Virus record (IMG/VR): IMGVR_UViG_3300016471_001035
Span: 1 to 64,000 of that record
Length of the DNA stretch: 64,000 bases
Origin: a virus
Reading direction: 5' to 3' (one strand)
The notes under the pieces are model-generated. The model was not told the DNA's origin and searched no databases. It saw only the letters and a list, made by a program, of their open reading frames with translations. Positions 1,282-38,306 of the stretch are shown in pieces; within the stretch, counting starts at the first letter, position 1, and each line of letters starts with the position of its first letter. Position numbers and translations under genes: made by a program.

Positions 1282-1374
1282 TTTATTTTGTCTAATAACA
1301 AGAAGGGTTATCCTTTAGCTTTAGCGCACGGTTCAGAATCGAATTTTCCCGTACTTAGACATTAAATATTCAAT

Positions 1375-3290: not shown

Positions 3291-3424
3291 GGTTCAGAGC
3301 TCCCCCCTCCGGCCGTAATCTTAAGGTGGTACATATAGTATAATGGAACTAGCAATTCTGTCAATAACAAAATAAAGCTTGTTTCAACCCAAAAAGCCCA
3401 TATAATATAGGTATGTTAAATAAA
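3291..3424. repeat. Divergent-promoter element, copy 1 (copy 2 at ~5534-5670)
   Basis: Shared blocks GTTCAG..CTCCCCCCTCC.GCCGTAA.CTTAAGGTGGTA, GTCAATAACAAAATA and TATAATA....TATGTTAAATAAA. Confidence 0.85.
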
Positions 3425-3643
3425 GCAAAAGTCGAACAACTACATAACCAATACCTACAATTTGAAAAAGCTATTAGTAAGGTTAGCTATAATAAGCTTA
3501 CAGAATTGTTGGATGTTAATGAAAGTAATTTAGATAGTTTTGATAAAGTGTATGGGGATAAGGTTTGTGAATTGTTAGAAGTGTATGCTACTATCAAATC
3601 TATAATTAAGGAACGCAATAAGCTTGCCAAACTAGTTGACTAA
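3413..3643 (+). CDS. hypothetical early protein
   Basis: Leaderless after TTGTTT-N16-TATAAT; ends ..LVD* over the next -35 box. Confidence 0.65.
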   Translation: MLNKAKVEQLHNQYLQFEKAISKVSYNKLTELLDVNESNLDSFDKVYGDKVCELLEVYATIKSIIKERNKLAKLVD

Positions 3644-3663
3644 ATTTTAATTTCAGCCATAAT
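3636..3663 (+). promoter_or_regulatory. sigma70-type early promoter overlapping upstream stop
   Basis: TTGACT-N16-CATAAT-N6-ATG(3670). Confidence 0.8.
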
Positions 3664-3669
3664 ATAAAA

Positions 3670-4011
3670 ATGAAAACAAGTTGTAAAGTGTGTAATAATA
3701 AAGTGGTAGGGGCTAAAATTAGAGAGCTCTTTAAAGAGGGTTGTATAAAGAATGGTGCTACAGTTGAAGATGCCTATTATGCTAATATGCATAATTGTAG
3801 CAGATATAATAATAAGCTAGTAGATGGTTATAAGATTGTCTATAAAAGTTTAAATTATGGAGCATTCAAAATGTTTAAAAATGATCGCATTAATGTGCAA
3901 AAGGTATGGAAGTATGTATTAGAGCATATTAATAAGATTGATAGTGGGTGGGTGTATAGGGAGTATAGTGGAGAGCATTATGGGATTAGTAAGGAGTTTA
4001 GGGTTGACTAA
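3670..4011 (+). CDS. hypothetical early protein (N-terminal CxxC)
   Basis: ORF with its own promoter. Confidence 0.65.
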   Translation: MKTSCKVCNNKVVGAKIRELFKEGCIKNGATVEDAYYANMHNCSRYNNKLVDGYKIVYKSLNYGAFKMFKNDRINVQKVWKYVLEHINKIDSGWVYREYSGEHYGISKEFRVD

Positions 4012-4031
4012 ATCCAAACTTCCAATATAAT
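4004..4031 (+). promoter_or_regulatory. sigma70-type early promoter
   Basis: TTGACT-N16-TATAAT-N6-ATG(4038). Confidence 0.8.
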
Positions 4032-4037
4032 AGGAGT

Positions 4038-4328
4038 ATGATGAAAAGCAAAATTGAAAAAGTAGTTAGGGAGTTGAAAGCTGATTGTGAAACTGAATTT
4101 GAGGATAGTAATTATGAGGATGTAGTAACAGACTTATACCCCTATTTGAAGAGGATTAATGAGATTAGTGGGTTAAATGATAATAAGAAGCAAGATAAGA
4201 TTTATGAGGAGTTGAAGGATTTTTGTGGTGAAGCCTATTTCCATGTTGCTGAATGTATGTGGGCAGATTTTAATGATAGTTATATTGAAAAGACTGTTAA
4301 TAAGATTGAAGAGATTTTGGTTGACTAA
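4038..4328 (+). CDS. acidic hypothetical early protein
   Basis: D/E-rich ORF with its own promoter. Confidence 0.65.
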   Translation: MMKSKIEKVVRELKADCETEFEDSNYEDVVTDLYPYLKRINEISGLNDNKKQDKIYEELKDFCGEAYFHVAECMWADFNDSYIEKTVNKIEEILVD

Positions 4329-4348
4329 ATCTAAAATTCAGCCATAAT
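4321..4348 (+). promoter_or_regulatory. sigma70-type early promoter
   Basis: TTGACT-N16-CATAAT-N7-ATG(4356). Confidence 0.8.
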
Positions 4349-4355
4349 AGGAGGT

Positions 4356-4565
4356 ATGATGAAACTAGAAAGAAAGAAACAAATTAGTGAGCTTATTGAA
4401 GAGACATTCAATAATGTCACCAAACTAAATGACCTACTCAAGAAATCAGATTATGTGTGGGCCAGAAAGAATAGTGAATCTGAAAATGATGATGATTATG
4501 AATTGGCTGAATCCATTCTTGGGGTGGGAGAGAATCTTAAAGATTGGGGGAAGATGTTTGAATGA
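4356..4565 (+). CDS. acidic hypothetical early protein
   Basis: ORF with its own promoter. Confidence 0.6.
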   Translation: MMKLERKKQISELIEETFNNVTKLNDLLKKSDYVWARKNSESENDDDYELAESILGVGENLKDWGKMFE

Positions 4566-4765
4566 AAACAAAAAATAAGAAAAAGACATTTGAAGTTGAT
4601 ATTGCAGTCACTCTCTTTATCACAAAAGAAGTAGAAGCAGAAGATGAAGATGAAGCTCAATCTATTGCAGAGCATTCCATCAAGACAGGAACTGTTATGG
4701 ATGCTTGGCAGAGTGGAGATTGTGAGATTGAAAGTCAAGGATGTACTGAAGTGGAGGTAGAGTGA
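4562..4765 (+). CDS. acidic hypothetical protein (VEAEDEDEA motif)
   Basis: ATGA overlap with upstream gene; motif common in small phage proteins. Confidence 0.6.
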   Translation: MKTKNKKKTFEVDIAVTLFITKEVEAEDEDEAQSIAEHSIKTGTVMDAWQSGDCEIESQGCTEVEVE

Positions 4766-4980
4766 ATACATTCAAACCATACAATCAAACTAATGTGGTA
4801 GACTTCTATAAGGAGTTGGTGAAGAGGTGGGCAGATGATCAGTTAGATCAACTTCATGAATACCCCATCACTAATAGGAAAGAGGCATTAGAAAGGCTTC
4901 TAGATAGTTCTCTTGATGTGTTTAGGGATGATATTACTGAAGAGATCAGAAAAAGAAATTTATCTTTTTTGGTTGACTAA
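4762..4980 (+). CDS. hypothetical early protein
   Basis: GTGA overlap; ends ..LVD* over the next -35 box. Confidence 0.6.
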   Translation: MNTFKPYNQTNVVDFYKELVKRWADDQLDQLHEYPITNRKEALERLLDSSLDVFRDDITEEIRKRNLSFLVD

Positions 4981-5000
4981 AATCCCAATTCAGATATAAT
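4973..5000 (+). promoter_or_regulatory. sigma70-type early promoter
   Basis: TTGACT-N16-TATAAT-N6-ATG(5007). Confidence 0.8.
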
Positions 5001-5006
5001 AGGTGT

Positions 5007-5312
5007 ATGATGAAAAACAAACAACAGTATCTATCAATTGACTTGTATAATGGCAAAAGCAAGTGGATCTCTCAAAAAGACTTCCTTGCATTTACTATTG
5101 GAGATGAATATGATGGTAAAGATAGTAAAGGGTACTATTATGAGTATAAGACTGATGTGGGGAAAACTGAAAAAGAGTACTATAATTGGAGGGACAATTT
5201 TGAAGACATTCAAAAGACTCCTACCCATACCATCTATAAAACTGAAGAGTGTATGTTAATTGACTTCACCAATCATGACTTTAAGGGTAGTTGGTTAAAG
5301 GAGAACAAATGA
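5007..5312 (+). CDS. hypothetical early protein
   Basis: ORF with its own promoter. Confidence 0.65.
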   Translation: MMKNKQQYLSIDLYNGKSKWISQKDFLAFTIGDEYDGKDSKGYYYEYKTDVGKTEKEYYNWRDNFEDIQKTPTHTIYKTEECMLIDFTNHDFKGSWLKENK

Positions 5313-5470
5313 AAATCAATAAAGAACAAAAAGAGAAAGTACTAGAAGTACTAGAACAATTAGCTGAAGATGCAGGTTATGAGAGTTATGAGAGTGGTGG
5401 TATGGAGAATATTGATAATGTAAATCCATACTACAAGAAGATTTGTAGGGTTCTTAAACTCAACTCCTAA
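5309..5470 (+). CDS. small acidic protein (53 aa, not in ORF track)
   Basis: ATGA overlap; MKINKEQKEKVLEVLEQLAEDAGYESYESGG... Confidence 0.55.
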   Translation: MKINKEQKEKVLEVLEQLAEDAGYESYESGGMENIDNVNPYYKKICRVLKLNS

Positions 5471-5483
5471 CCCATCATAATGG

Positions 5484-5521
5484 AAAAGGCTTATTGTAAA
5501 AGATAAGTCTTTTCTGTTTTT
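5484..5521 (+). terminator. putative intrinsic terminator
   Basis: AAAAGGCTTAT-loop-ATAAGTCTTTT followed by CTGTTTTT. Confidence 0.5.
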
Positions 5522-5533
5522 ATATAGAAAAAT

Positions 5534-5670
5534 GTTCAGTCCAGTCCTCCCCCCTCCTGCCGTAACTTAAGGTGGTAGGTATATTGTATAGGGATTTAGG
5601 TTTTGGTCAATAACAAAATAGTATTTGACTTAAACCAAAATTCTACTATAATAGTTGTATGTTAAATAAA
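5534..5670. repeat. Divergent-promoter element, copy 2
   Basis: See copy 1; minus-strand TTGACC-N16-TACAAT (5610-5583) and plus-strand TTGACT-N16-TATAAT (5625-5652). Confidence 0.85.
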
Positions 5671-5847
5671 AACGAATTTGATAGTTTTGAGGAAATTGAA
5701 AAGTTTATTTATGAAATTGGGGATAGAGATTTAGAGATATATTTTGATAATTTGAAGGAAAGTTATGGGGTTAGTGAATGGGGGGAGGAAAGGATTATAG
5801 AGGAGTTTAGTAAGTATGTGGTTAAAAGTGGGATTTATTTTGTTTGA
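5659..5847 (+). CDS. acidic hypothetical early protein
   Basis: Leaderless; starts MLNK like 3413. Confidence 0.6.
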   Translation: MLNKNEFDSFEEIEKFIYEIGDRDLEIYFDNLKESYGVSEWGEERIIEEFSKYVVKSGIYFV

Positions 5848-5877
5848 ATAAAAAGTAATTTCCAATATAATATAAAA

Positions 5878-6129
5878 ATGATGAATAAAGAAGTTAAAAA
5901 TATATATGGTGGTGAATTGGTAAGTGAAAAGGATGTAATTTGGGATGATGATAAGGAGGTGTTTATTTGTAAGAAAGAATTGGAGGAGGGTAAGTATTAT
6001 GGTTATTATTGTGATGTAAGTAATGAGGGGTTTGTATTTTGGAAGAAAGATGGGAAGGTAGATTATGATGTAGGAGATGTGGATGAATATGGTGATTGGA
6101 TTTTAGTAGAGAAAGGAATTGTTAAATGA
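5878..6129 (+). CDS. acidic hypothetical early protein
   Basis: TTGAAT-N16-TATAAT (5844-5871) upstream. Confidence 0.6.
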   Translation: MMNKEVKNIYGGELVSEKDVIWDDDKEVFICKKELEEGKYYGYYCDVSNEGFVFWKKDGKVDYDVGDVDEYGDWILVEKGIVK

Positions 6130-6398
6130 ATAAAGGATTGAAAGTTAATAGAGGAGAGGATATGGATAGTTTGTATGAAAGTATGGAATATGATTTTGAG
6201 AATGGAGCGGGTATTATTGATAGTTTGAAGCGTATTAATAAAGTTCCGAAAAAGGATTGGGTAAAAGTATTAGAAGGGTTTAAGGAGTGGGAGTTAAGGG
6301 AGTTGGGAGAGAATAGTGAATGGGATAAAGATGAAATGGATAAAGAGAGTGTTGAGTTTATAGAGAAGAATAAGATTAAATGGAATTGGATGTATTGA
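6126..6398 (+). CDS. acidic hypothetical early protein
   Basis: ORF track; E/D/K/W-rich. Confidence 0.55.
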   Translation: MNKGLKVNRGEDMDSLYESMEYDFENGAGIIDSLKRINKVPKKDWVKVLEGFKEWELRELGENSEWDKDEMDKESVEFIEKNKIKWNWMY

Positions 6399-6440
6399 TT
6401 TTGGAGTTGACAAAAAAGTAAATTCCCGTATAATAGGAGT

Positions 6441-6656
6441 ATGATGAAGAAAATATATTTGAATATTGATTGGATGAGTAGGAGTGTTAGTGTTAGTGAT
6501 AAAGAGGGATTTGAGGATTGGAAAAAGTATTTGGTGGAAGAGAATAAATGTGGGGAGAATAAGGATGGGAATAGTTTGGAGATTTATAATGAGGATGATG
6601 AAGATGAGGGTGATAGTATGGTAGAGTTAGAGATTGAAGAGAAAGATTTGTATTGA
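6441..6656 (+). CDS. highly acidic early protein
   Basis: TTGACA-N16-TATAAT (6407-6434) upstream; EDDEDEGD tract. Confidence 0.65.
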   Translation: MMKKIYLNIDWMSRSVSVSDKEGFEDWKKYLVEENKCGENKDGNSLEIYNEDDEDEGDSMVELEIEEKDLY

Positions 6657-6686
6657 CCCAAATCTAAATTCCCCTATAATATGTGT

Positions 6687-6881
6687 ATGATAAATGATAC
6701 AGAGAAGAGTGAGAGGGAGTTGTTTATAGCTTATACAATTGAGAACATTATAAATGGGCTCAAATATATTGGCAATGAAGTGGATCCAGAGAATACCCCA
6801 GCCTGGAATAGTATTAGAAAGCAGTTAGAAACTATTGATAATCAGGTTGATAGGCTGGTAAACAGGACTAAATGGAAATGA
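6687..6881 (+). CDS. hypothetical early protein (start probably 6687)
   Basis: TTGACC-N16-TATAAT (6653-6680), then 6 nt to ATG 6687. Confidence 0.6.
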   Translation: MINDTEKSERELFIAYTIENIINGLKYIGNEVDPENTPAWNSIRKQLETIDNQVDRLVNRTKWK

Positions 6882-7105
6882 AGTTCTCTTATAAGAAGCT
6901 GATTGATGAGCATACAAAAGCTCTCAAGTTAAGATGGGGGGATGATTGCCTCTCTAAAGGAAGTAAGACTGCTATCAATTATGGATGGGGGCAGACAGAT
7001 AACTCTATCTGCTCTAAAATTTATTTGGAGAGTGGGCATCAAGTTTTAGATACTTGGTTTGATGAAGAGGATATGATTTACAGGTCAGCACAATCAGATT
7101 ATTGA
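6872..7105 (+). CDS. hypothetical early protein
   Basis: ORF track; overlaps the upstream stop. Confidence 0.55.
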   Translation: MEMKFSYKKLIDEHTKALKLRWGDDCLSKGSKTAINYGWGQTDNSICSKIYLESGHQVLDTWFDEEDMIYRSAQSDY

Positions 7106-7140
7106 GTTGACTAAACTTAAAGTTCTTTCATAATAATAGC

Positions 7141-7278
7141 AGTTCCTTCCGCAGTACGGGTTTGACTAGCCCAATTGATGTACTGAAGCCCCAACGCCCA
7201 GAGTCTGAGGCGGGTAAAGGTGGGTATATTGTCCTAACTACTGTCGACGTTACTAGAGTAGGGGAGTCGGAAGGAGCT
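7141..7278 (+). ncRNA. putative structured non-coding RNA (~138 nt), family not recognised
   Basis: Promoter TTGACT-N16-CATAAT (7107-7134) with no ATG at +1; 5' AGTTCCTTCCG pairs with 3' CGGAAGGAGCT; internal stems; U-tract follows. Confidence 0.7.
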
Positions 7279-7322
7279 ACTTTTTTAGTTGACGCAAACA
7301 GAAGTTCAGCCATAATAGTAGT

Positions 7323-7493
7323 ATGATGAAATTCGAAACACAAAGACAGATTGAATATTGGTTGGAAGAAATGAATAACGGACATTTCGATAATATGTAT
7401 GAGAATTGTTGTGATATGTATGATAGTGAGGTGTTGATTGTTGATGAGTTTAATAATCAAATCAATTTCTTCTTGAGTGAGGCTTGTCCATAA
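7323..7493 (+). CDS. small acidic early protein (56 aa, not in ORF track)
   Basis: TTGACG-N16-CATAAT-N6-ATG; MMKFETQRQIEYWLEEM... Confidence 0.6.
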   Translation: MMKFETQRQIEYWLEEMNNGHFDNMYENCCDMYDSEVLIVDEFNNQINFFLSEACP

Positions 7494-7533
7494 TTTGGCT
7501 TGACCCAAACCTACATTCAGCCATAATAGTAGT

Positions 7534-7701
7534 ATGATGACAATGACGATCAGAGAAGCGGTGAAGAAGTATAAGAAGAAGGATACGTGCAGGTACTTCT
7601 TGAAATGTACCAATAAAGCCACCACCACCATCCCCAGTCCTATTCTGGGTGAGGTGCCTGCTTGTAAGAGCTGTTCAGACTTCTATAAGAGACAATCATG
7701 A
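7534..7701 (+). CDS. small Cys-rich early protein (55 aa, not in ORF track)
   Basis: TTGACC-N16-CATAAT-N6-ATG; C-x5-C...CxxC, possible Zn finger. Confidence 0.6.
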   Translation: MMTMTIREAVKKYKKKDTCRYFLKCTNKATTTIPSPILGEVPACKSCSDFYKRQS

Positions 7702-7925
7702 CATACAGAGTTACTTGGTATTCAATGTGGGCCAGACCTCAGATATATGATGGGCTCACCAAGCAAGAAGCAGATACTTTAGTCTGGCAGGGTAGGGAGA
7801 GTCAGTATAAAGTAAAGGTAGAAGAGTTTGAGATAGATGGTGATAATCGAACTACACTCGAATAACGCCCCCCGAGCTTAAACTTTATAGTTGACCAACC
7901 CCCAAGAAGCACCTACAATAGTAGT

Positions 7926-8246
7926 ATGATGAATAAAGAAGTTACTTACGAGATCTACGATACAATGATTGGTGATTGGCGCAAAGTCTCCGAGCCTGCT
8001 ATCGGAGGTATTAAGTGGGAGAAGCGTGAGCAGATCGGGGATGAGGTCCAATCTGCCTATTACGATAACTCCTTCTACAAGGTACCCTTCTATGGCCCTT
8101 ACGATCAGGGTCGTATCCATCGTGCTCTCAACAATTTATATCCCGCACGATTCAATAAGTTCGGTGGTTATACTACCGTTTCAAGCGTAGAGCAGCTTGA
8201 TGATCAACACATTAAGGTAGAGCTCTGCTACCATATCGGAGACTAA
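7926..8246 (+). CDS. hypothetical early protein
   Basis: TTGACC-N17-TACAAT-N6-ATG. Confidence 0.65.
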   Translation: MMNKEVTYEIYDTMIGDWRKVSEPAIGGIKWEKREQIGDEVQSAYYDNSFYKVPFYGPYDQGRIHRALNNLYPARFNKFGGYTTVSSVEQLDDQHIKVELCYHIGD

Positions 8247-8248
8247 CT

Positions 8249-8467
8249 ATGACAAGTAAGCTCAGAGCATTCGAAGACATCATATTAAACATACCAGAAA
8301 CGTGCGAGCTTAAGGGAGCTCTAAGGGGCGCTATCAACGATAGTGATATTCGTACCGAAGATAAGCGTCGGTTACATATGCACATCAATCAATGTAACAC
8401 TATCAACGACTTACAGAGGTTATTCTACAACGCTTTACTCAAGTATGAAGGACATGGAGTTGTATGA
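8249..8467 (+). CDS. hypothetical protein
   Basis: ORF in operon; ends FYNALLKYEGHGVV. Confidence 0.55.
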   Translation: MTSKLRAFEDIILNIPETCELKGALRGAINDSDIRTEDKRRLHMHINQCNTINDLQRLFYNALLKYEGHGVV

Positions 8468-8760
8468 GTTGGGTGGCTCGTAAGATTTGTATGTCAGATG
8501 ATGTTAATCAAGATCAAGTTATCAAAGAGTACTTTGATAAGAAGGAGATGAAACTACTTGAAGAACAAGAGATTAAGAAGTTCTGGGAAGAGTATGGTGA
8601 TGAATACTATACAGGAGGCGAATAATGGATAAGCTTATACACTTCTGTTTGATGGTGTTAGCTAACCTCATTGCTCTGGCCATCTACGCACTTGTGAGTA
8701 TTACTATCTGGAAGAGCATTTGGTAGTTGCCGTTAACCCAAGTTCCATTATAATAGGAGG

Positions 8761-8988
8761 ATGATGAATAACACAGTAACCGTTGAATTGCCTCGGGCTG
8801 AGAAGGCTGAGGATAGTACAGGAGGTAAGGTAGGCTATTGCATCGGCACCCTTCTTAACCTCAAACAAATGATGCATATCAATTCTGGTAGGGGTGGTGA
8901 GGGAGTGTTCTCTCAGTCTGAGATGCTCCAACAGATCGATAAGGTTATCGACAAGCTAGATCAGATCACTTACCCTTACGCGGTTTAA
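8761..8988 (+). CDS. hypothetical early protein
   Basis: TTGCCG-N16-TATAAT-N6-ATG. Confidence 0.6.
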   Translation: MMNNTVTVELPRAEKAEDSTGGKVGYCIGTLLNLKQMMHINSGRGGEGVFSQSEMLQQIDKVIDKLDQITYPYAV

Positions 8989-10751: not shown

Positions 10752-10824
10752 GGGCGTATAGCTCAGCGGTCAGAGCAGGAAACTCATAATTTCTTGGTCC
10801 TAGGTTCAAATCCTAGTACGCCCA
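10752..10824 (+). tRNA. tRNA-Ile2 (CAT, lysidine type); Met not excluded; no encoded CCA
   Basis: Cloverleaf GGGCGTA/TACGCCC, D-arm GCTCAGCGGTCAGAGC, anticodon loop CTCATAA, T-loop TTCAAAT; AGCAGG..ACTCATAAT..CTTGGTC core resembles bacterial tRNA-Ile2. Confidence 0.9.
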
Positions 10825-11901: not shown

Positions 11902-12321
11902 TTAATTTCCATATATTACAATATATACAGGATTACAATCATAGTATGCACCTCTTACATTATCATAACCTGCACCGATAACAACAGATTCCACAGTAGG
12001 ACTCTGTGCAAAATATACAGATATACCGGACCCTGTATTTGTATTAGCTGTTACATTTACAACATATTTGTTGTCTCTCATTGGTGTACTAAAGTAGATC
12101 GTGTATATACCGGTTCCATTTCTTACAACACTTTGAACATTATAAGAGGAATTAATTGTAGCCGAAGAGCCATTAAAGCTAACCCATGCCTTAGGTATAA
12201 AAGGTAACGAACTTAGCTGTGCCAACGTTGTTGAAAAAGTAACACCGTCTTTACTAATAGGTAGAATACTAGCAGAGGTAGGTACAGTATTGGTTAATTG
12301 GGATATTGTTACATCGGCCAT
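11902..12321 (-). CDS. MADVTI-family fibre/adhesin, tip class 2
   Basis: PKAWV.FNG....I.SSYNV.SV.R.GTG.Y...F...M.D..Y.V tip. Confidence 0.7.
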   Translation of the reverse strand: MADVTISQLTNTVPTSASILPISKDGVTFSTTLAQLSSLPFIPKAWVSFNGSSATINSSYNVQSVVRNGTGIYTIYFSTPMRDNKYVVNVTANTNTGSGISVYFAQSPTVESVVIGAGYDNVRGAYYDCNPVYIVIYGN

Positions 12322-12326
12322 ATCAA

Positions 12327-12368
12327 ATATTTAATAATCTGAACCGTGCTAATTCACTACGTTCGTAA
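12327..12368 (-). repeat. 42-bp inter-cassette repeat, copy A
   Basis: Minus strand TTACGAACGTAGTGAATTAGCACGGTTCAGATTATTAAATAT; 3 differences from copies B/C. Confidence 0.9.
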
Positions 12369-12369
12369 T

Positions 12370-13002
12370 TTATAATGCTAGCTCAACAGCAATAATATTT
12401 GAAGTTGTGGCGTGTCTATAACCTGATTCCCATCTACCAACGTTTTTGACCCACGGTTGACCACCGTTAGTTGTAGGGTTAATTAACCAGATTGAATAGG
12501 TCACCGGTAGTATGGTATTTGGACTATCTACATACATAAACGTATGTGGTATTTGATATGCATAAAACGAGTGTGACATAGCATTGCCCTCTGCATTTGG
12601 CGTATAAGATGTACTGCCTACTGTATACGGTGTAAGACTGGCAGAATATACACGCTGTCTTGTTTGGTTATCAATAGATCTATAGAGACGTGATACTACA
12701 GAGATATTTTCTGTAGCACCCTTTAGATCATACCAAACTAAAATTTGACTTGCTGTATATTTTGGAGTAATAGTTACAGTCATATTTGTTACCTGATATT
12801 CTGTAGTACCGTTTGCAAAATTAATTACTTGATGATCATTATTTGGTGATTGCACTATGTTAAATAGTGCTCCTAGAGGTATACATGAGGCAGTTAAACT
12901 AGATGCAAGCGTTTTAAAAGTATTGGTACCATTGCTGAAAGGTATTACGTTATCACCACTAGGTGTAGATGTATCTAGTTGCGATATTGTTACGTCTGCC
13001 AT
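12370..13002 (-). CDS. MADVTI-family fibre/adhesin, tip class 1 (divergent)
   Basis: VTITPKYTASQILV...DSPNT..PVTY...IIAVELA. Confidence 0.7.
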   Translation of the reverse strand: MADVTISQLDTSTPSGDNVIPFSNGTNTFKTLASSLTASCIPLGALFNIVQSPNNDHQVINFANGTTEYQVTNMTVTITPKYTASQILVWYDLKGATENISVVSRLYRSIDNQTRQRVYSASLTPYTVGSTSYTPNAEGNAMSHSFYAYQIPHTFMYVDSPNTILPVTYSIWLINPTTNGGQPWVKNVGRWESGYRHATTSNIIAVELAL

Positions 13003-13007
13003 ATTAG

Positions 13008-13049
13008 ATATTTAATAATCTGAACCGTGCTAATTCGCTTCGCTCGTAA
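13008..13049 (-). repeat. 42-bp inter-cassette repeat, copy B
   Basis: Minus strand TTACGAGCGAAGCGAATTAGCACGGTTCAGATTATTAAATAT. Confidence 0.9.
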
Positions 13050-13057
13050 GGATAGCC

Positions 13058-13705
13058 CTACCCGGCAATTTCCATTAATGTAAGGGTAGATGCATATCTA
13101 CCTTCAAAATCATTTGAAGAGCGATTAATATACCAGTTTGTAGCATTGCTAGCAAACTGTACTTTATATATATGCGTGCCTCCCCCGGGTGTATCTAAAA
13201 AATTCATTACATGCGCTCTTGCATGATTACCATCTCCAAAAAATGAACTTGGAGTTGATGCTTGTATTTTACCTGATGCCGCGTCACCCACACATATTGG
13301 TGTACTGCCTCTTACAAGCCTAGAAAATAGAGAACCTGCATTTGACCCACCATTACCGGTGAACATAACTAATACTTTATTATTTGACGAACGCATAGTA
13401 ATAGAGGTGCTTAAACCTATATCTGTAAATGTAAGAGCTCCTGTTGTACCTTGAAATACATCTGTTTTAACACTTGATTGTACTTGTACAACAGAGCCAG
13501 AAGGTAGAGAGGATATATAACCATTAGGGTTTGTTGTACCGTTATAGGGAGTATAACCTAATGCAGTAGTAATCTGTGCTGATGTCATTACTCCACATAC
13601 CTGGCTTAATGTTACCTTTCCTGTTGTAGATCCATCGGTAACCGGTAGAAATAAACCAGTAGAAGGTGCTAGAGGACTTAGATTATTAATCGTTACATCG
13701 GCCAT
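13058..13705 (-). CDS. MADVTI-family fibre/adhesin, tip class 1
   Basis: ITTALGYTPYN.TNPNGYIS linker; GSVVQVQS.VKTD...STLTLMEIAG. Confidence 0.7.
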   Translation of the reverse strand: MADVTINNLSPLAPSTGLFLPVTDGSTTGKVTLSQVCGVMTSAQITTALGYTPYNGTTNPNGYISSLPSGSVVQVQSSVKTDVFQGTTGALTFTDIGLSTSITMRSSNNKVLVMFTGNGGSNAGSLFSRLVRGSTPICVGDAASGKIQASTPSSFFGDGNHARAHVMNFLDTPGGGTHIYKVQFASNATNWYINRSSNDFEGRYASTLTLMEIAG

Positions 13706-13710
13706 ATATT

Positions 13711-13752
13711 ATATTTAATAATCTGAACCGTGCTAATTCGCTTCGCTCGTAA
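13711..13752 (-). repeat. 42-bp inter-cassette repeat, copy C
   Basis: Identical to copy B. Confidence 0.9.
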
Positions 13753-13792: not shown

Positions 13793-14644
13793 CTATACTC
13801 TAGATATTGTAACTAATGATGTTGTCCAATAACCAGTAAATGCGTAAGTTGGACTAAAATACGAAGTACTCGAAGCATTAAAATCTATTAAATCTCCTGC
13901 AGTAAAAGAGCCTCCATAAACAAATACACCCGGACACCATCCGTCCCCCGTAGGTGCATACGAACGACGCTGACCAATTGAGCTACCATTTTTATTACAC
14001 TGTATAATAACTCTATCACTATTTGTACCGCCATTTCTTATACTAACATTAAAATTAAATTCTATTACATATGTTCCAGTTGTAGGAATTGTATAACGAT
14101 AATTAGTATTATCCCAAGAGCCCTCTCTAACGTATAAAGGGTTGTTTAATGCACATCTATAAAAAGTGCCAGGTGAGTTATTTGAAAATGTTTGATCTGT
14201 ACCGTTTATTAAAGCAAGCGGATTGATATTTTTACCATATATTCCTACAGATGATATTTTTAACCTTTCTGTTAAAGTATGTGGTACATCTTCTGCCGCA
14301 CAGTATATTTTAATTAAACCACCATCATTTGTAGTGTTGTTTGTATTTTCAGCCTGTATTCTTACTGCAGTATATTGGCCTACAGCAGCTTTTACGTCCA
14401 GATCTAAACTCGGACTTGTACCAGAGCTTCCTGTTTCCGGTGCTATTCTTAAGCCTGCAGTAGTATTACTAGCTATATCTAGTGCGTAAGTAGATGAAGT
14501 TGTTTTGTTAACATTTACATTTTTAGTATTTTGAAATATAGCCGATACCGGAACAGCCAAAGTATTTGAACCGGTACTAAATGGAATAGCTGCATTTCCT
14601 GACGGTGTGCCTTTCGGCAAAGAGGATATCGTTACGTCTGCCAT
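13793..14644 (-). CDS. MADVTI-family fibre with C1q-like C-terminal tip
   Basis: ERLKISS fibre motif; WDNTNYRYTIPTTGTYVIEF...KNG...AGDLIDF matches a C1q/TNF-like jelly roll. Confidence 0.65.
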   Translation of the reverse strand: MADVTISSLPKGTPSGNAAIPFSTGSNTLAVPVSAIFQNTKNVNVNKTTSSTYALDIASNTTAGLRIAPETGSSGTSPSLDLDVKAAVGQYTAVRIQAENTNNTTNDGGLIKIYCAAEDVPHTLTERLKISSVGIYGKNINPLALINGTDQTFSNNSPGTFYRCALNNPLYVREGSWDNTNYRYTIPTTGTYVIEFNFNVSIRNGGTNSDRVIIQCNKNGSSIGQRRSYAPTGDGWCPGVFVYGGSFTAGDLIDFNASSTSYFSPTYAFTGYWTTSLVTISRV

Positions 14645-15108: not shown

Positions 15109-15516
15109 TTACCTATAAATAACTACGTAAACTGAATTTGCATTATAAGCTACTGTCCACGGTAGCCCCGTCGTTATAGTTAAACTGCCTGCTGTTTGGC
15201 CTACTACGGAAGCTACATACTGACTATCACATGAACATGAAACAACATATTTGTTATCTAACATTGATTCACTAAAAAATACTGTATAGCTTCCTTGACT
15301 GTTTTTTGTAACACTAGAAACATTAAAAGAGGAATTTATTGGCGCGCTCCCTACCGCACCAGAACCATTAAAGTTAACCCATGCCTTAGGTATAAAAGGT
15401 AACGAACTTAGCTGTGCCAACGTAGTTGATAGGGTAACACCGTCTTTACTGATAGGCAAAATACTATTAGTAGTAGGTGTTGTGTTAGTTAATTGAGATA
15501 TCGTTACATCGGCCAT
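15109..15516 (-). CDS. MADVTI-family fibre/adhesin, tip class 2
   Basis: PKAWVNFNG...SSFNVSSVT...G.YTV.F; ~48 bp identical to the 11902 gene. Confidence 0.7.
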   Translation of the reverse strand: MADVTISQLTNTTPTTNSILPISKDGVTLSTTLAQLSSLPFIPKAWVNFNGSGAVGSAPINSSFNVSSVTKNSQGSYTVFFSESMLDNKYVVSCSCDSQYVASVVGQTAGSLTITTGLPWTVAYNANSVYVVIYR

Positions 15517-17843: not shown

Positions 17844-20645
17844 TTAATACTTATATATTCTCAAACTATTAAATCTCATATTTTGCAAGTCACCTCCAGA
17901 GGACCCCACGTTCTCAGTATATATTCTAAATTCTTTTAATACTCCTGACTTATTAACTGTGCTTGTTTCAGCACCTCGGGTAACTGTAATCTCTACATTA
18001 TTGGATGAAGTTTGCTTTGCAACTATATCAAACACACTAGTCTGACTGTATCCCCACCCTAGAAGTGATCCATTAAAGTAATAATCATTACTGGTTACAG
18101 AGAAATTAACTAAAAAGTTTCCATTACTATCAAATAAGTTAACACCTTTACCACCATCTCTATATGCTAAGGCTACTTTAATAGATGCAGCATATCCAAC
18201 AGCAAGATTACTACTAAATGGTCTATTAAAGTAACCAGTCCCCGGGTTACTAGACCATATACCGAACGCCTCACCATTGGTGTTAATATCACCAAACCCT
18301 TGTGTAGTAGAACTACCTATATAGCTACCTGCATTTGATGTTGTCACACTCCATGAGTTAAATCCTGTTCCTCCATTATCACCACCACTTATAGCATCGT
18401 CATCATAAGGGGAATTTGAAGCCACGTCCTCACCACCCGGAGACGTTGTTGGTGTGGGTGAGGGTGTCGCTGTTATTGTTACACTAGGGGTAACTGTTGT
18501 AGTTATCGTGGGTGTTTGGGTTACTGTAGGTGTAGGCGTTTCTGAGGCTGTATTTGAAGGTGTAGGTGTATTTGTTGGCGTATTAGTCGGTGTTAAAGAT
18601 TGAGTAGGTGTTTGTGAAGGTACAAATGGTTCATTGGACGGTGTTTGTGTAATCGTGGGTGTTACTGTTGGTGTTATTGTAGGTGTTGGCGTTTCTGAGG
18701 ATGTATTAGATGGTGTTAACGTTGGTGTAGGTGTCTCTGTTTCTGTAGGTGTAACTGTGGGTGTGGGTGTCTCTGTTTCTGTGGGTGTGTATGTAGGCGT
18801 TTCCGTTGGAGTAATAGTAGGTGTAGGTGTTGGTGTTTCTGTCTCAGATGATGTAATAGTAGGCGTAGGTGTTGGTGTATTTGTCGAAGTTACGGTTATT
18901 GAAGGTGTTGGTGTAGGGGTAGGTTGTATAAAAGGATATACCTTAAAGCTATTAAAGTATAAGTTATTCCTATCATCCCCTGCATTGGTATCAGATACAT
19001 AAAGCTTGTGACCGCGAAGAACATTACTAATCGTTGTTATATTATAATCACCATTAGGCCTGCTCACTGTTATTTGCAGTGTATTTGAACCGGTTTGTGC
19101 TACTACTATTTCAAATACAGACGTTTGACTATAAGTCCACCCTTGGTCAACACCGTTAACCTGATATTGATTACTACCTACATTAAAGTTCCAAACTTCA
19201 TTACTATACCCGGTATCACTAAACAGCGAAATACCCTTATTACCATTTCTAAATGCAATTGCAAGGATAGCTGAAAAAGCATAGCCAACAGTTAAATTAG
19301 AGGAGAGATTTCTCCTTAAGTCAATAAAGTTACTACCAGCTGGATTTGCATATGCGCCGAATGCTTTACTATTAGTTGTTATATCTCCAAAGCCTTGTGT
19401 AACGCTATCTGAGCCTATAAATGCACCGGCAGTACCGTTTAAAGCAAAACTCCAATCATCAAATCCCGGCCCTGCGTCAATACCGTTATTAAATCCAGAA
19501 TTATAAACAGAGTTATTTGCATTATCTTCAAATATGGTTTGTGTGGAAGAAGGTGTAACTGTCGGTGTAGGTGTACCGGTTGGGGTTTCCGTAGGTGTAG
19601 GCGATTCAGTAGGTGTAAATGTAGGTGTTTCTGTAGGTGTAGGTGTTACCGTTGGAGTAGAAGTCTCTGTTTCTGTGGGTGTGTATGTAGGTGTTTCCGT
19701 TGGAGTAATAGTAGGCGTAGGTGTTGGTGTTTCTGTCTCAGATGATGTAATAGTAGGCGTAGGTGTTGGTGTTTCTGTCTCAGATGATGTAATAGTTGGT
19801 GTCACTGAAGACGTATTTGTTGGAGTAATAGAAGGTGTATTAGATGGCGTTACTGTTGATGTATTTGTTACAGTCGGCGATGGTGTAGATGTTTGTGTTG
19901 TAGTAGAAGTAGGCGTTGCAGTAGGTGAGCTTGTAGGTGTATTGGATATAGTTGGCGTTGTTGTGGGGGTTTTAGTCACCGTTGGCGTACTCGTTCTGGT
20001 TACTGTAGGTGTAATAGTTTGTGAAGGCGTTATTGACGGGGTAGGTGATGTTGTTGGTGTTACTGAAGGTGTAACTGCAGGCGCTTCTGTTTTTGTTAAA
20101 GTAAATATTGCTGACCCCGTGCTAGAATAAAACCAAGTATAATAAACATTTTGTGATGTTATTAAAGTAGTAGATTCTGAAATAAAGATTTTATCATCAT
20201 TAGTAATTACATTTACTAAATTATATGCAGAAAGATAGCAGCTATTAAAATCATTTATATCAAAATTATTTTCTACCTCAAATGAGAACCCATCACCTTG
20301 AATAGTAAAATATGTTGTAGTGTTTGAAACCGTTACGTTTATAATGTTAGCTGTAGGTAGGATGTTTATTGTTTGACCGGTTGTATTGACATCAAAGCTT
20401 TGTACCGCACCAGCTACATCTCCCGCACAATAACTACCTGCAGATTCTTCTTCTAATTTTGTAAGCTCTACGGCTCTTTGCTCAAACAATATTCTTCTTT
20501 CGAGTTCAGTTTCTGCCATCGAATCAAACAACATTTTCTTTTGAATATTGTTTGGAACCGGTTTATCCCAAGTTGGTTTATCTGGAGGGAAGGTATAGCT
20601 TCTTCCATCCGATAAAGCATCTAAATATTCATCAAACCAGTCCAT
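17844..20645 (-). CDS. large virion-surface protein with two mucin-like Thr/Pro tracts and two related beta-rich domains
   Basis: (TPT/ETPTP)n tracts; duplicated domain D.A.NS.Y...G...G.GF..WS....AG..IG....QGFGDI.TN..AFG...GW.YSQTSVF. Confidence 0.75.
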
Positions 20646-24517: not shown

Positions 24518-24683
24518 TTTTTTTAGGCAGTCTTAATGTTACTGTTTTCTGTTTACTAGGAAATGTATTTTGCTGATCACCGCTAGTTAAACCAATGTCA
24601 GGACCAGTTGACGGAGCTGCTTGCTGTTGAGGGTAAATATTAAAATCTTCTAGGATTTTTTTAAAGCAATCGTCAAATTTCAT
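24489..24683 (-). CDS. small hypothetical protein, putative head-internal
   Basis: MKFDDCFKKILE N-terminus. Confidence 0.5.
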   Translation of the reverse strand: MKFDDCFKKILEDFNIYPQQQAAPSTGPDIGLTSGDQQNTFPSKQKTVTLRLPKKIKKKLKKAR

Positions 24684-25888
24684 CCTTTTAATCGATTATG
24701 TTGCTTTAAAAAATCTACTTCTCTTTTTAATTCTTTAATACTTTCAATTAAAAACGGAATAATTTTAATATAGTTTAATCCCATAAACCCGTCTTCTCTT
24801 GTTTCCACTGCTTCCGGTATTACTAAATTTACTTCTTGTGCAATTAAGCCGTAATCACTTCCCTGTAAATGTGAATACTGAGGATAGTCAGATGCAACAT
24901 TTTTCCAATCGAAAGAATATCCTGTCAACTTAACTATAGTGTCAAGACCTCCTCTTATTGGTTTAATATTTTCCTTTAAATCTTTATCTGAACTAAAAAA
25001 CGCAATAACGTCACCGGTGCTTCTAACAGTGCCCGTTACTGTAGTGTTACCCTGTACATTTAATGTGCCTTGAATAATCGTTGGCGTTTTTAGTGTTATG
25101 GTTGTACCAACGGTAAATTTTGTTGTATCAAGTGCAAATACAGGTGGATTAACTGTCTGATTAATAGTAATACCGTTTTGAGCAGCAAATGTAGCTTCCT
25201 GTAGAATGGTAGAAAAGGAGAAGCATGTTAAATTAGAAGTAGCAGTTCTCCCTAATACCGTGCTTGGTAATACAGCCAGGTCTTGAGGATTATTAGTAAC
25301 GTTTAAAAAATTACATTTAAACGTGTTAGCCGGTACTTCTTGAAGAAATCGATTTTCAACAGAATCTTCTATTAACCCTATTGGTGCATTTAGAGAAGGC
25401 TTGCCGATGGTGTAATTATCGACAACAGCAAAACTTAATTGCCTCGGGCCTACACCTTGATCTTTAATTTGCAGTTGGTCTAAAGTATTATATTCAAGCT
25501 GGGTATCGTTTATTAAAGTAACAAAATCATATTTTACGAATTCTGATGACAAAGGAGGAAATGTATTAACGCTAGTTAAAGAATATAATCCTCTTGTTTC
25601 TTCATCGTAAACAATATCACCGGTAGCCGCTCCTTTATTAAGAATAGCGGTTATAGCTTCAAAGGAAAGTCCGTTTTGATAATTACCAAAAAGGTTATCA
25701 AGTGTTCCTAAATTTTGAATCCCAATAGCATTGCCTCCAGATGTACTGCCATCACCTATATAAAGTCTTTTTGTATCGACACAATAGCCTGGCTCACCAC
25801 TACTAAATACTATACCAGTAAGATTAGCAGTACGTCTTTGAATATCGGTGCCCTGACGAATTAGAATTTTTGTTATTGTATCTGCCAT
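24680..25888 (-). CDS. tail fibre with Mtd-N-like N-terminus and C-terminal S74 intramolecular chaperone
   Basis: KILIRQG...GEPGY..DTKRLYIGDG; SSDKDLKENIKPI...GLIAQEV..V.PEAV...NYIKIIP.LIESIKELK. Confidence 0.85.
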   Translation of the reverse strand: MADTITKILIRQGTDIQRRTANLTGIVFSSGEPGYCVDTKRLYIGDGSTSGGNAIGIQNLGTLDNLFGNYQNGLSFEAITAILNKGAATGDIVYDEETRGLYSLTSVNTFPPLSSEFVKYDFVTLINDTQLEYNTLDQLQIKDQGVGPRQLSFAVVDNYTIGKPSLNAPIGLIEDSVENRFLQEVPANTFKCNFLNVTNNPQDLAVLPSTVLGRTATSNLTCFSFSTILQEATFAAQNGITINQTVNPPVFALDTTKFTVGTTITLKTPTIIQGTLNVQGNTTVTGTVRSTGDVIAFFSSDKDLKENIKPIRGGLDTIVKLTGYSFDWKNVASDYPQYSHLQGSDYGLIAQEVNLVIPEAVETREDGFMGLNYIKIIPFLIESIKELKREVDFLKQHNRLKG

Positions 25889-33972: not shown

Positions 33973-34803
33973 ATGCTAATGAAAGTATCCCATGAATCTC
34001 CTGTGTCTATTCTAGAATATTCAAAGGAATATAATGATTTTGACTACTGCTTAGTACATCTATTACATCAAAACGCAGGTTCTCCGCAACAATTAGCATA
34101 TAATAATTATTATTCCCATGCCAGATCACTCTATAATAGAGAGGTATTATTAGATAACTCTATTTTCGAGCTCGGAAAAGCTTTCGATCCAGAACAATTT
34201 TATAAATCTGCAATGCTCATCAAACCGAATATGTTTATTGTTCCCGATGTTTTAGAGGATGCAGACGGTACTGTTGAGAGTTGGAACAATTTTGAAGCTA
34301 AGACCGATGATTTAAAGAAAAGTTTTTATACAAAATCGATAGGAGCTGTGCAAGGTAAAACATGGAAAGACTTAGTAGATTGTTATAAGTTTATGTCAGA
34401 TAACGCTGATATGATTGCTATTAGCTTTGATTTTAGTTATTATCAAGCTATAGGGTATGGTAAAACGGAGCTTGAAAGATTCTGCTCAGGTCGTCAGCGC
34501 TTTATTGCGGATTTAATAAATAGTAATGTATGGGATTGGAATAAGCCTCATCATCTTTTAGGATGTTCCCTAGCTAAAGAATTTAGATATTATGTCGATA
34601 GAAACGTTTACAATATTGTCTCTTGTGATACTAGTAATCCTATTGTATGTGCAATATTCGGATTAAAGTATGATGCAGATTACGGTTTAAGTAATAAACC
34701 GAAAGTTAAGTTAGCTGATCTTATTTCTCACGAATTTACTGATGAGCAACTTGATTTAGTAAAATACAATACATCGATGTTTAAAAAAATTATTAGAAGA
34801 TGA
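33973..34803 (+). CDS. dpdA: DpdA/TGT-like TIM-barrel deazaguanine transglycosylase (start probably 33973)
   Basis: LLDNSIFE, VPDVL, GAVQG, HHLLG and SCDTS mirror the TGT-fold motifs; same operon as queF; promoter TTGATC-N17-TATAAT-N6-ATG. Confidence 0.7.
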   Translation: MLMKVSHESPVSILEYSKEYNDFDYCLVHLLHQNAGSPQQLAYNNYYSHARSLYNREVLLDNSIFELGKAFDPEQFYKSAMLIKPNMFIVPDVLEDADGTVESWNNFEAKTDDLKKSFYTKSIGAVQGKTWKDLVDCYKFMSDNADMIAISFDFSYYQAIGYGKTELERFCSGRQRFIADLINSNVWDWNKPHHLLGCSLAKEFRYYVDRNVYNIVSCDTSNPIVCAIFGLKYDADYGLSNKPKVKLADLISHEFTDEQLDLVKYNTSMFKKIIRR

Positions 34804-35369
34804 GACCCTGGGTAACATTTTTTTCGCAAACTGGTACAGAGATTAATAATTTATGTAATGCTTTAGGTATATATCCGGACGCAATTATTACAAACAAACA
34901 GACTACTGATGATATTAATAAGGATTTTTTAACCATTACAACCTTTAGAACACAAAAGCTTAATAGAACAATTTTGTTCACTCTCCCTCACAAACCTAGC
35001 TTAGAGAATTATTTTGAGGTTTTAAGTAAATTTAATAACCCAGTTATAACGTTACATGGCTATTTGAGAATAATACCTAAAGAGATTTGTGAGAAGTATG
35101 AAATCTATAACCTACATCCCGGTTTAATTGACAAATACCCGTCTTTAAAAGGATTTAATCCTCAAGAGAGAGCTTTTATTGGTGGCTATAAGCATGCAGG
35201 ATGTGTTATTCACAAAGTAGTACCTGAAGTTGATGCGGGTGAAATTCTCTTAAGCCAGGGAACAAGTATAGAGGGGTTGACACTTCCACAAGTATACAGC
35301 AAATTACATAATGTTGCATTTGACTTGTGGAAAAGCTTATTTCAAGGGTATAAAATTTTAGGAAAATAA
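34800..35369 (+). CDS. PurN-like formyltransferase, probable preQ1 formyltransferase (DpdN-like)
   Basis: LHGYLRII; YNLHPGL..KYP.LKG; GCVIHKV..EVDAGEIL; between dpdA and queF. Confidence 0.75.
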   Translation: MRPWVTFFSQTGTEINNLCNALGIYPDAIITNKQTTDDINKDFLTITTFRTQKLNRTILFTLPHKPSLENYFEVLSKFNNPVITLHGYLRIIPKEICEKYEIYNLHPGLIDKYPSLKGFNPQERAFIGGYKHAGCVIHKVVPEVDAGEILLSQGTSIEGLTLPQVYSKLHNVAFDLWKSLFQGYKILGK

Positions 35370-36830: not shown

Positions 36831-37411
36831 ATATAACATTTACTGGGCCGCAATGTTCAGGCAAGACTACTTTACTTAAATTAATGAGAAGTAGTGGAGG
36901 TATATTTGATAAGTTTTTTTATATTGACGAAGTTACTAGAAAGATAAGAGATGAATGTAATATACCTATTAATGAAGAGGGTGCAAACGATGTAACCCAA
37001 TTACTAATTATAAACGAGGAACTAAAGAATTTGTTTAATAATAGTAGTATGGATAGTTGGTGTAAAGGTACAGTGCATGATAGGTGTCTGCTAGACGGTT
37101 TAGTTTATACAGAATACTTTTATAGCAAGAAGCTAGTCAGTTATCAGGTTTGGACACAAGCGCACTGGTATTGGCAGAGATTTTTTAGTAAGTATGATAT
37201 AATTTTCTATCCATGTCCTCATGATGTTCAACTAATAGATGATGGTGAAAGAAGTGTTGATACAGAATTTAGAAATTCAATAATTAAACTATATGAGGAT
37301 CACTGGTTAAAACAATTTGAGTGGAAAGATAGGATAACTATTTTAAAGGGAACAGTTGAAGAACGCTTAGAACAGATTAAAATTAAACTACATGAACAAG
37401 GTATTAGATAA
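36827..37411 (+). CDS. P-loop nucleotide kinase-like protein (AAA_28)
   Basis: ITFTGPQCSGKTTL; HDRCLLDGLVY; DDGERS...FR. Confidence 0.8.
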   Translation: MNITFTGPQCSGKTTLLKLMRSSGGIFDKFFYIDEVTRKIRDECNIPINEEGANDVTQLLIINEELKNLFNNSSMDSWCKGTVHDRCLLDGLVYTEYFYSKKLVSYQVWTQAHWYWQRFFSKYDIIFYPCPHDVQLIDDGERSVDTEFRNSIIKLYEDHWLKQFEWKDRITILKGTVEERLEQIKIKLHEQGIR

Positions 37412-38306
37412 CAGTAATATTTCGAAACACTTAGGTAAAGTAACCGGTTATAAGTCAACTTACGACCCTTCTCTTTTAGTCAGAGAACCGAGAATTAATA
37501 ATCGTAAGCATTTAGGTATTACTGATGAAGATGCACCTTTTGGTGGTTATGATATTTGGAACGCATATGAGGTGTCTTGTTTAACAGCTGAAGGTATGCC
37601 TATTGCTGCTATTGCTAAGATTGTATATCCATGCAAAAACCATTATATTGTTGAGTCAAAATCAATTAAACTGTATATGAATTCTTTTAATATGCAAATA
37701 TTTAAAGGTAATATGATTCAAGTATTAAACGAATTACAAAATACTATTGCAAATGACTTATCTAATTTACTTGAAGCTACTGTTAAGGTATATGTAAGGT
37801 CAGCTGCAGCGGTATCAGATGACATATATTATCCTCCAGTCTTTAATAATAAAGACTACCCTACCCTTGAAAATAATATTGATGTTACGATGATACAATC
37901 AAAATCTTACGTAGAGGATCCATCTATTTTATCCGCAATAGAGATCCCTGAAGCTAGGATACAAAGATTTCATTCTGCTTTACTAAAAAGCAATTGTAGA
38001 GTTACATCGCAACCAGATTGGGGCGACGTTTATATACATTATAAAGGTAAGTACGAAATCAATCAAACATCGCTACTACAATATATCGTTTCCTTCAGAG
38101 ACGAATGCCATTTTCATGAAGAGATATGTGAGACCATTTATATGCGCTTATTTAGATTATTTAAGCCTGAAGAGCTTGTTGTAAGTTGTTTATATGTAAG
38201 GCGTGGTGGTATTGATATTAATCCTACTAGAGCTAGTAATTATAGCTTATTAGACAAAGCTCTAATAGATGAGTTTAAATATTTTACTAAGACGGTAAGG
38301 CAGTAA
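37392..38306 (+). CDS. queF: NADPH-dependent preQ0 reductase QueF (two-domain type)
   Basis: YDPSLL..PR..NR; D.WNAYEVS; ESKSIKLYMNSFN; LLKSNCRVTSQPDWG; FHEEICE; Y.RRGGIDINP.R. Confidence 0.95.
   Translation: MNKVLDNSNISKHLGKVTGYKSTYDPSLLVREPRINNRKHLGITDEDAPFGGYDIWNAYEVSCLTAEGMPIAAIAKIVYPCKNHYIVESKSIKLYMNSFNMQIFKGNMIQVLNELQNTIANDLSNLLEATVKVYVRSAAAVSDDIYYPPVFNNKDYPTLENNIDVTMIQSKSYVEDPSILSAIEIPEARIQRFHSALLKSNCRVTSQPDWGDVYIHYKGKYEINQTSLLQYIVSFRDECHFHEEICETIYMRLFRLFKPEELVVSCLYVRRGGIDINPTRASNYSLLDKALIDEFKYFTKTVRQ

Follow-up and report, generated by a model that had tools for sequence, protein, structure and literature searches.

A candidate boundary module combining a DNA mini-hairpin motif with a T4-type late box between tail-fibre cassettes of an uncultured T4-like phage lineage

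The junctions between tail-fibre cassettes in an uncultured T4-like phage carry a short composite module, which on the sense strand would consist of an 11-nt mini-hairpin (GA-GC-GNA-GC-GA; the stem would have two Watson-Crick pairs, and the loop would be closed by G..A and contain one or two unconstrained bases), a GCACGG box and, at a distance of 5-6 nt from the ATG, the hexamer TAAATA as a putative T4-type late promoter box. With about even confidence, we propose that this is a boundary module between fibre cassettes that serves as a homology patch without a dedicated recombinase and whose hairpin and box would together form a cis signal on the sense strand. Tail-fibre cassettes set host range, and the module marks the seams of their exchange in a large, uncultured lake phage lineage. 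In addition, dozens of natural copies, with double changes that preserve pairing, a loop base that varies freely and an indel restricted to the loop, indicate that selection retains a DNA mini-hairpin motif in the genome of a double-stranded phage. Evolutionary evidence of this kind is rare for a motif known mainly from chemistry. Provided that the hairpin is recognized in its folded DNA form at the late promoter boundary, it would represent a new kind of cis signal for the model of T4 late transcription and recombination.

The window analyzed here corresponds to positions 1 to 64,000 of an IMG/VR virus record that is 139.6 kb long and estimated to be 66% complete. Its genes include those for a major capsid protein of the T4 type (38807-40330), a portal protein (43750-45552) and a ribonucleotide reductase. 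The matches to gp23 and gp20 identify the phage as T4-like and, since its capsid protein shares at most about 33% identity with that of any cultured phage, it is a member of a deep-branching, uncultured lineage of T4-like myoviruses. No cultured relatives of this lineage were found, and no occurrence of the module was found in cultured phages.

Two arrays of small genes are present in the window, one on the plus strand (110-2007) and one on the minus strand (16252-11204). Their products have a common N-terminus (MADVTI..L..P..P.S.G..T) and unrelated C-terminal parts, and several of them match PHROG tail-fibre families. A tRNA gene (10752-10824, plus strand, 72.9 bits), which was the only feature detected in an Rfam search, is located just beyond the fibre array. 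The first-pass annotation of this DNA had described three copies of a 42-nt spacer on the minus strand, and all three were recovered at the positions it gave. Copy C (13711-13752; GCGAAGC mini-hairpin at 13740-13746, GCACGG box 12-mer at 13722-13733, TAAATA at 13712-13717) follows the stop codon of a fibre-like gene for 283 amino acids (13793-14644) and serves a fibre-like gene for 215 amino acids (13058-13705). The stop codon of the latter precedes copy B (13008-13049; GCGAAGC at 13037-13043, box at 13019-13030, TAAATA at 13009-13014), which serves a gene for 210 amino acids with a PHROG tail fibre match (12370-13002). This gene in turn ends 1 nt before copy A (12327-12368; ACGTAGT at 12356-12362, box at 12338-12349, TAAATA at 12328-12333), and copy A serves another gene with a PHROG tail fibre match (11902-12321, 139 amino acids). 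All of these minus-strand genes encode the MADVTI N-terminus.

Closer examination of the three copies revealed that B and C are identical, while copy A matches them at 39 of 42 positions. As previously noted, all three differences fall inside the 7-mer and convert GCGAAGC to ACGTAGT, which replaces the outer G-C pair with A-T and gives a GTA loop. The 12-mer GCACGGTTCAGA that contains the GCACGG box occurs four times in the window compared to an expectation of 0.12, and no further occurrence is present in the whole 139.6-kb record. The fourth occurrence (1326-1337, plus strand) is oriented with respect to its gene in the same way as the other three, in agreement with the earlier description. 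It belongs to a long-form, or class 2, module (1282-1374, plus strand; the three 42-nt copies represent the short form, class 1) that consists of the mini-palindrome GCTTTAGC (1318-1325), the GCACGG box (1326-1337), about 21 extra nucleotides and TAAATA (1363-1368), followed by the ATG at 1375. This module is situated between two plus-strand MADVTI fibre-like genes, the upstream one at 727-1281 and the one it serves at 1375-2007. The impression of a near-identical spacer between divergent genes held as well: identity between copies is 93-100% within the element, 15-40% in the 60 nt upstream, 53-63% in the first 60 nt of coding sequence and 34-39% in the next 120 nt.

Junctions between MADVTI genes in the window are of two kinds only, either tight (up to 9 nt) or module-bearing, and the head-of-array gene at 16252 is without a module. 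Tight junctions of 1-9 nt were observed at 718/727, 11893/11902, 14644/14654, 15103/15109 and 15516/15518, with the one at 15516 lacking a late box. Genes at these tight junctions probably depend on coupling to the gene upstream, and the modules would thus delimit units of one to four genes.

In copies A to C, the 3' end of the spacer is formed by TAAATA, 6 nt before the ATG. Across the genome, 34 ORFs are preceded by this hexamer at a distance of 3-9 nt, which clusters sharply at 5-6 nt (28 ORFs), and none of the 34 has a Shine-Dalgarno motif. The ORFs concerned include fibre genes as well as other genes of the structural region, with starts at window positions 110, 1375, 11893, 14644, 16252, 20688, 43724 and 54121 as examples. 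In T4, the late box TATAAATA is located around -10 before late and structural genes, and TAAATA appears to be this lineage's version of it. Because TAAATA lies 5-6 nt before starts that are devoid of a Shine-Dalgarno motif, the late messages look leaderless, and with this spacing transcription of a late message should begin at the start codon or immediately beside it. The hairpin had been described as being fused to a late promoter, which is borne out by a T4-type late box at a fixed distance from it. Two other promoter assignments were discarded. A sigma70 promoter was matched in copy C only and by chance, and the long form looked similar to a MotA box only by eye, without a matching spacing to a -10 element.

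To survey related junctions, viral and metagenome contigs were scanned with a pattern that is blind to the hairpin (GCACGG, 8-38 nt, TAAATA, 3-9 nt, ATGGCNGAYGT). These scans returned 85 distinct sites: 47 copies of the short form (class 1), which come from 32 loci, 25 of the long form (class 2) and a few unrelated chance matches. All 47 short and 25 long copies are located upstream of MADVTI fibre genes. When viral contigs were instead searched for the hairpin and box without requiring a fibre gene, every match was an already known fibre junction. A hairpin-anchored search added five further copies with an intact hairpin and single box substitutions, and the hairpin is therefore at least as constrained as the box. 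In 69 of the 70 copies with enough flanking sequence, a co-oriented ORF, nearly always another MADV gene, ends 1-103 nt upstream. The distance of the module is fixed to the downstream ATG and variable to the upstream stop. Its placement between co-oriented fibre genes characterizes the module as an internal junction rather than a general fibre promoter element. The block is conserved in at least 32 contigs with flanking genes that cannot be aligned, and the module is under purifying selection there. A different conserved junction precedes MADV genes in related phages (L054:3350-3444, L058:11250-11346, L060:11610-11701 and L068:1740-1833), where a late TAAATA box comes directly after a canonical terminator hairpin that has an 11-bp stem, a 4-nt loop and a T-run. 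The presence of a canonical terminator before the late box at equivalent junctions of relatives suggests that this position calls for a boundary signal. A 76-kb relative contig (L030; record G001, 76074-76130) ends just past the junction module and the first MADV codons. Assemblies thus seem to break at the module repeat, in which case the array lengths in metagenome contigs are underestimates.

The proposal that the spacer contains a covarying GNA mini-hairpin under selection could be examined with these copies and was supported. All 47 short copies can be parsed as GA-[RC]-[loop]-[GY]-GA, with stems that are either GC/GC (43 copies) or AC/GT (four copies) and never half-changed. Accordingly, the inner C-G pair is present in 47/47 copies, and the outer pair is G-C in 43, A-T in four and unpaired in none. 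Stem pairing of 100% was reached by 0/500 shuffles in the pair-counting tool, whose type count was inflated by two misaligned rows. Loops comprise GTA (16 copies), GAA (15), GCA (10), GGA (2), GTTA (2) and AAA (2), and hence the loop-end G is found in 45 copies and the loop-end A in all 47, while the middle position is A in 17, T in 16, C in 10, G in two and TT in two. The middle loop base, with an entropy of 1.92 bits, is the sole freely varying site, whereas the ten positions around it have 0-0.42 bits. The single indel in the block also falls within the loop (GTTA), where the G..A closure is kept. G-U intermediates were encountered in none of the 52 short copies.

The copies closest to each of the four with the A-T pair carry G-C, whether judged by the remainder of the element or by the N-terminal coding sequence, and the paired state has therefore been kept on four different backgrounds. 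The covariation could nevertheless stem from a single ancestral double change that was spread by conversion. The same 7-mer is shared by 47% of the within-contig pairs versus 20% of the between-contig pairs (permutation p=0.015), and identity of the element is 83% within versus 70% between contigs, which fits short-patch conversion or co-adaptation to a genome-specific reader. Taken as a pattern of sequence variation, these data support selection for a strand-specific GNA mini-hairpin. An extended stem beyond the GA flanks was consistent only in the TATTGA subgroup (five copies), and the invariant GA on both sides would, we assume, allow the stem to be extended by tandem sheared G.A pairs. In the long form, the position next to the box is occupied by GC-TNNA-GC with the loops TTTA (21 copies), TATA (2), TCTA (1) and TTCA (1) and one G-T. 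This form may be a deletion derivative without the homologous hairpin.

DNA mini-hairpins of the types GCGNAGC and GCGNNAGC fold with any N, and melting temperatures of 76.5 C for GCGAAGC and 69.5 C for GCGTTAGC have been reported, while no melting was seen for GCAAAAGC (PMC13037366). GTTA is likewise a published mini-hairpin loop and a variant at the origins of St-1 and alpha3 (PMC13037366). Judged by these rules, the motif matches the stable DNA mini-hairpins exactly, GTTA included. The AAA loop of two of the 47 copies is of the type without hairpin melting in vitro. The DNA fold calculated with ViennaRNA amounts to 0 kcal/mol for the motif, because there is no bonus term for special triloops, and spacers as well as bare 13-mers folded no better than shuffles. 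RNAalifold detected no supported larger structure in the 47 short and 25 long copies, with a value of only -2.7 kcal/mol. It also detected no pairing between the module and the start-codon region in either class, and translational gating in the style of T4 e and soc is therefore unlikely. An alternative stem between the loop GAA and a TTC that follows the box was rejected on account of the independent variation of the loop base. No intrinsic terminator was found in the window spacers, where the stem of the mini-hairpin comprises 2 bp and is not followed by a T-run.

All junction pairs were compared by BLAST. Seven pairs have a common upstream gene, identical at 88% or more of positions over more than 340 nt, followed by unrelated downstream gene bodies, two pairs have a common downstream gene preceded by unrelated upstream genes, and no pair shares both flanks. 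One flank is thus common and the other unrelated in 9/9 junction pairs, and the genes flanking the module are reassorted among relatives. In the two pairs with a common downstream gene, the 5' edge of the module is where homology starts. Among the seven pairs with a common upstream gene, five were aligned, and here homology ends either just past ATGGCNGAYGT (two pairs) or after about 45-70 N-terminal adaptor codons (three pairs). Break points are consequently spread over approximately 50-250 nt of module and conserved N-terminal coding sequence and extend beyond the hairpin, a distribution expected of homologous recombination. The suggestion that the spacer marks a cassette recombination site was therefore upheld in part: the module is a seam for cassette reassortment, while break points do not map to one point in the hairpin.

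The first-pass annotation had further envisaged an integron-like adhesin array in which the repeat may mark a shuffling, recombination or priming site, by analogy with integron attC and HUH/primosome sites that are recognized as folded single-stranded DNA. Like integron attC, the module is a structured, strand-specific repeat between gene cassettes in an array; the cassettes do reassort, and similar mini-hairpins exist at the primase or ssi sites of G4, St-1 and RSF1010. Sites of the attC type are imperfect palindromes of 57-141 nt with extrahelical bases that need IntI and are associated with promoterless cassettes. In contrast, the module has no such palindrome or extrahelical bases, its sole pairing is a hairpin of 7-11 nt, and each cassette carries its own late box. 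The recommended search for a tyrosine recombinase or HUH gene was negative throughout the 139.6-kb, approximately 66% complete record, with no match for tyrosine recombinases, including the IntI type (PF00589, with positive controls), or the Y1 HUH enzyme (PF01797). Serine recombinases and reverse transcriptases (PF00078) were also not found in this record, and none of the repeat families contained a TR/VR-like repeat. We therefore rejected the readings that invoke a serine recombinase, a Y1 HUH enzyme or a diversity-generating retroelement (DGR), for which no enzyme was found in the record. Break points that are distributed over roughly 50-250 nt rather than at one phosphodiester bond also argue against a site-specific process. 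The integron-like, HUH and priming readings are thus without support from gene content or architecture, and we consider a site of this kind extremely improbable. At the other extreme, the repeats could be nothing but a duplicated promoter region, inherited with tandem fibre duplications and subject to gene conversion, with a coincidental hairpin. The greater likeness of copies within contigs is in line with such a history, and by a rough estimate a 7-mer that fits the hairpin rule would arise by chance in a 31-nt block in about 2-10% of cases. However, flanking genes too divergent to be aligned accompany the conserved block in at least 32 contigs, and its variation follows hairpin rules in the free N, the loop-confined indel and the paired double change. 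This explanation, already disfavoured, appears very unlikely to us.

Two further explanations accept selection on the motif and differ in the molecule that would be read. An RNA-level element in read-through or upstream transcripts could provide a 3'-end, processing or protein-binding signal for the mRNA of the preceding cassette, at the usual position of a terminator. This is compatible with the location of the module, which is always 1-103 nt past a co-oriented gene and always in gene orientation, with the canonical terminator and T-run directly before the late box at equivalent junctions of relatives, and with window spacers that lack an intrinsic terminator which could otherwise stop read-through. 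On the other hand, an RNA stem of 2 bp is unstable, the RNAalifold result speaks against a supported structure, there is no U-tract, and the distance is fixed to the downstream promoter and not to the upstream stop. Together with the exact agreement with DNA mini-hairpin rules, including GTTA, and the lack of G-U intermediates among the 52 short copies, this renders an RNA element unlikely. Alternatively, the conserved bases could contact a phage regulator of fibre late promoters as a double-stranded operator, in which case the hairpin would never form. The fixed phase of the motif with the late box, the shift of the long-form GCACGG box, which amounts to two helical turns (about 21 nt), and the homogenized copies within genomes, as if the factor of each phage read its own version, are features expected for an operator. 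Protein contacts do not, however, predict a complementary double change from G-C to A-T without single-change copies, and in the A-T copies a reading as tandem AGCG-N-AGCG would be disrupted at two places. There is also asymmetry in the G and A at the loop ends, which are conserved and non-complementary, and the module is absent from head-of-array fibre promoters, and we accordingly regard an operator as rather improbable.

The preferred reading, a boundary module with a sense-strand DNA signal, combines two roles. The module and the conserved MADVTI N-terminal coding sequence would act as a homology patch at which the general recombination machinery of the phage swaps cassettes, without a dedicated recombinase, as has been proposed for promoter-early stem-loop (PeSL) cassettes. 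Homology-driven homogenization alone does not explain the site-specific pattern of variation, which implies that hairpin and box have a function of their own, presumably as a cis-acting signal on the sense (non-template) strand. A signal at the DNA level is favoured because the motif exactly matches the DNA mini-hairpin rules, because G-U intermediates are lacking, because a 2-bp RNA stem is unstable and because the late transcript should start downstream of the motif. Most likely, unwinding of the region would allow the signal to be read in the form of folded single-stranded DNA, and it probably constitutes a boundary or regulatory element for the adjacent late promoter. A bolder and distinctly doubtful extension is that GNA mini-hairpins are a general strand-specific boundary signal of late transcription units in T4-like phages. 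Their small size would permit folding in the single-stranded non-template strand of a transcription bubble or at a fork, where they could stop or insulate against read-through polymerase or position the sliding-clamp activator. Their exonuclease resistance could focus recombination at cassette edges.

PeSL cassettes of T4-type phages are composite stem-loop and promoter motifs for which a role as patches of homology in recombinase-free modular shuffling was proposed (Arbiol et al. 2010, PMC2839356; Comeau et al. 2014, PMC4122927). The module described here appears to be their late-promoter counterpart. Similar to PeSLs, it is a short composite intergenic motif repeated between variable cassettes (three short and one long copy in the window, 72 distinct copies in relatives), the motif coincides with the borders of replacements between related phages, and exchange would use general homologous recombination of the phage rather than a dedicated recombinase. 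In contrast to PeSLs, which consist of a sigma70 early promoter and a G/C-rich terminator and separate ORFans, the module has a T4-type late box and a 2-bp GNA mini-hairpin without a T-run, and its cassettes are tail-fibre genes with a common N-terminal adaptor. A layout resembling that of PeSLs was noted in another part of the window (3372-8775), where at least 11 near-consensus sigma70-type promoters (TTGAC.. N17 TATAAT) are each followed within a few nucleotides by an ATG and a small ORF. This segment is probably an early hyperplastic region.

The hairpin itself resembles the d(GCGNAGC)/d(GCGNNAGC) mini-hairpins of Hirao and colleagues in its two pairs, the G..A closure, the tolerance of any middle base, the GTTA variant and its strand specificity, while four module copies differ from the d(GCGNAGC) stem by their A-T outer pair. 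Early promoters of phage N4 contain hairpins with 5-7 bp stems centred near -11 that are read by a T7-like virion polymerase. The module shares with these a DNA hairpin with a GNA-type triloop in a phage promoter region, and it differs in its 2-bp stem, its location about 35-40 nt upstream of the start and its attachment to a gp55-type box. Natural mini-hairpins have been described at origins of single-stranded DNA phages, plasmid ssi sites and N4 virion-polymerase promoters (PMC13037366). Unlike these cases, the module with its putative hairpin is located in a double-stranded T4-like genome upstream of a late promoter.

Several additional features of the window were apparent. A 402-aa MADTITK protein (24680-25888, minus strand) combines an Mtd N-terminal domain with an endosialidase-chaperone domain and is probably a fibre with a self-cleaving chaperone. 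A protein of 933 amino acids (17844-20645, minus strand) contains two long tracts of degenerate 6-12-nt periodic repeats, including a 51-nt family with 31 copies. Genes encoding a formyltransferase and QueF (7-cyano-7-deazaguanine reductase) are located at 34800-35369 and 37392-38306, adjoining a GMP-reductase-like gene. As formyltransferase and QueF represent genes of the 7-deazaguanine pathway, the G residues of the phage may be modified.
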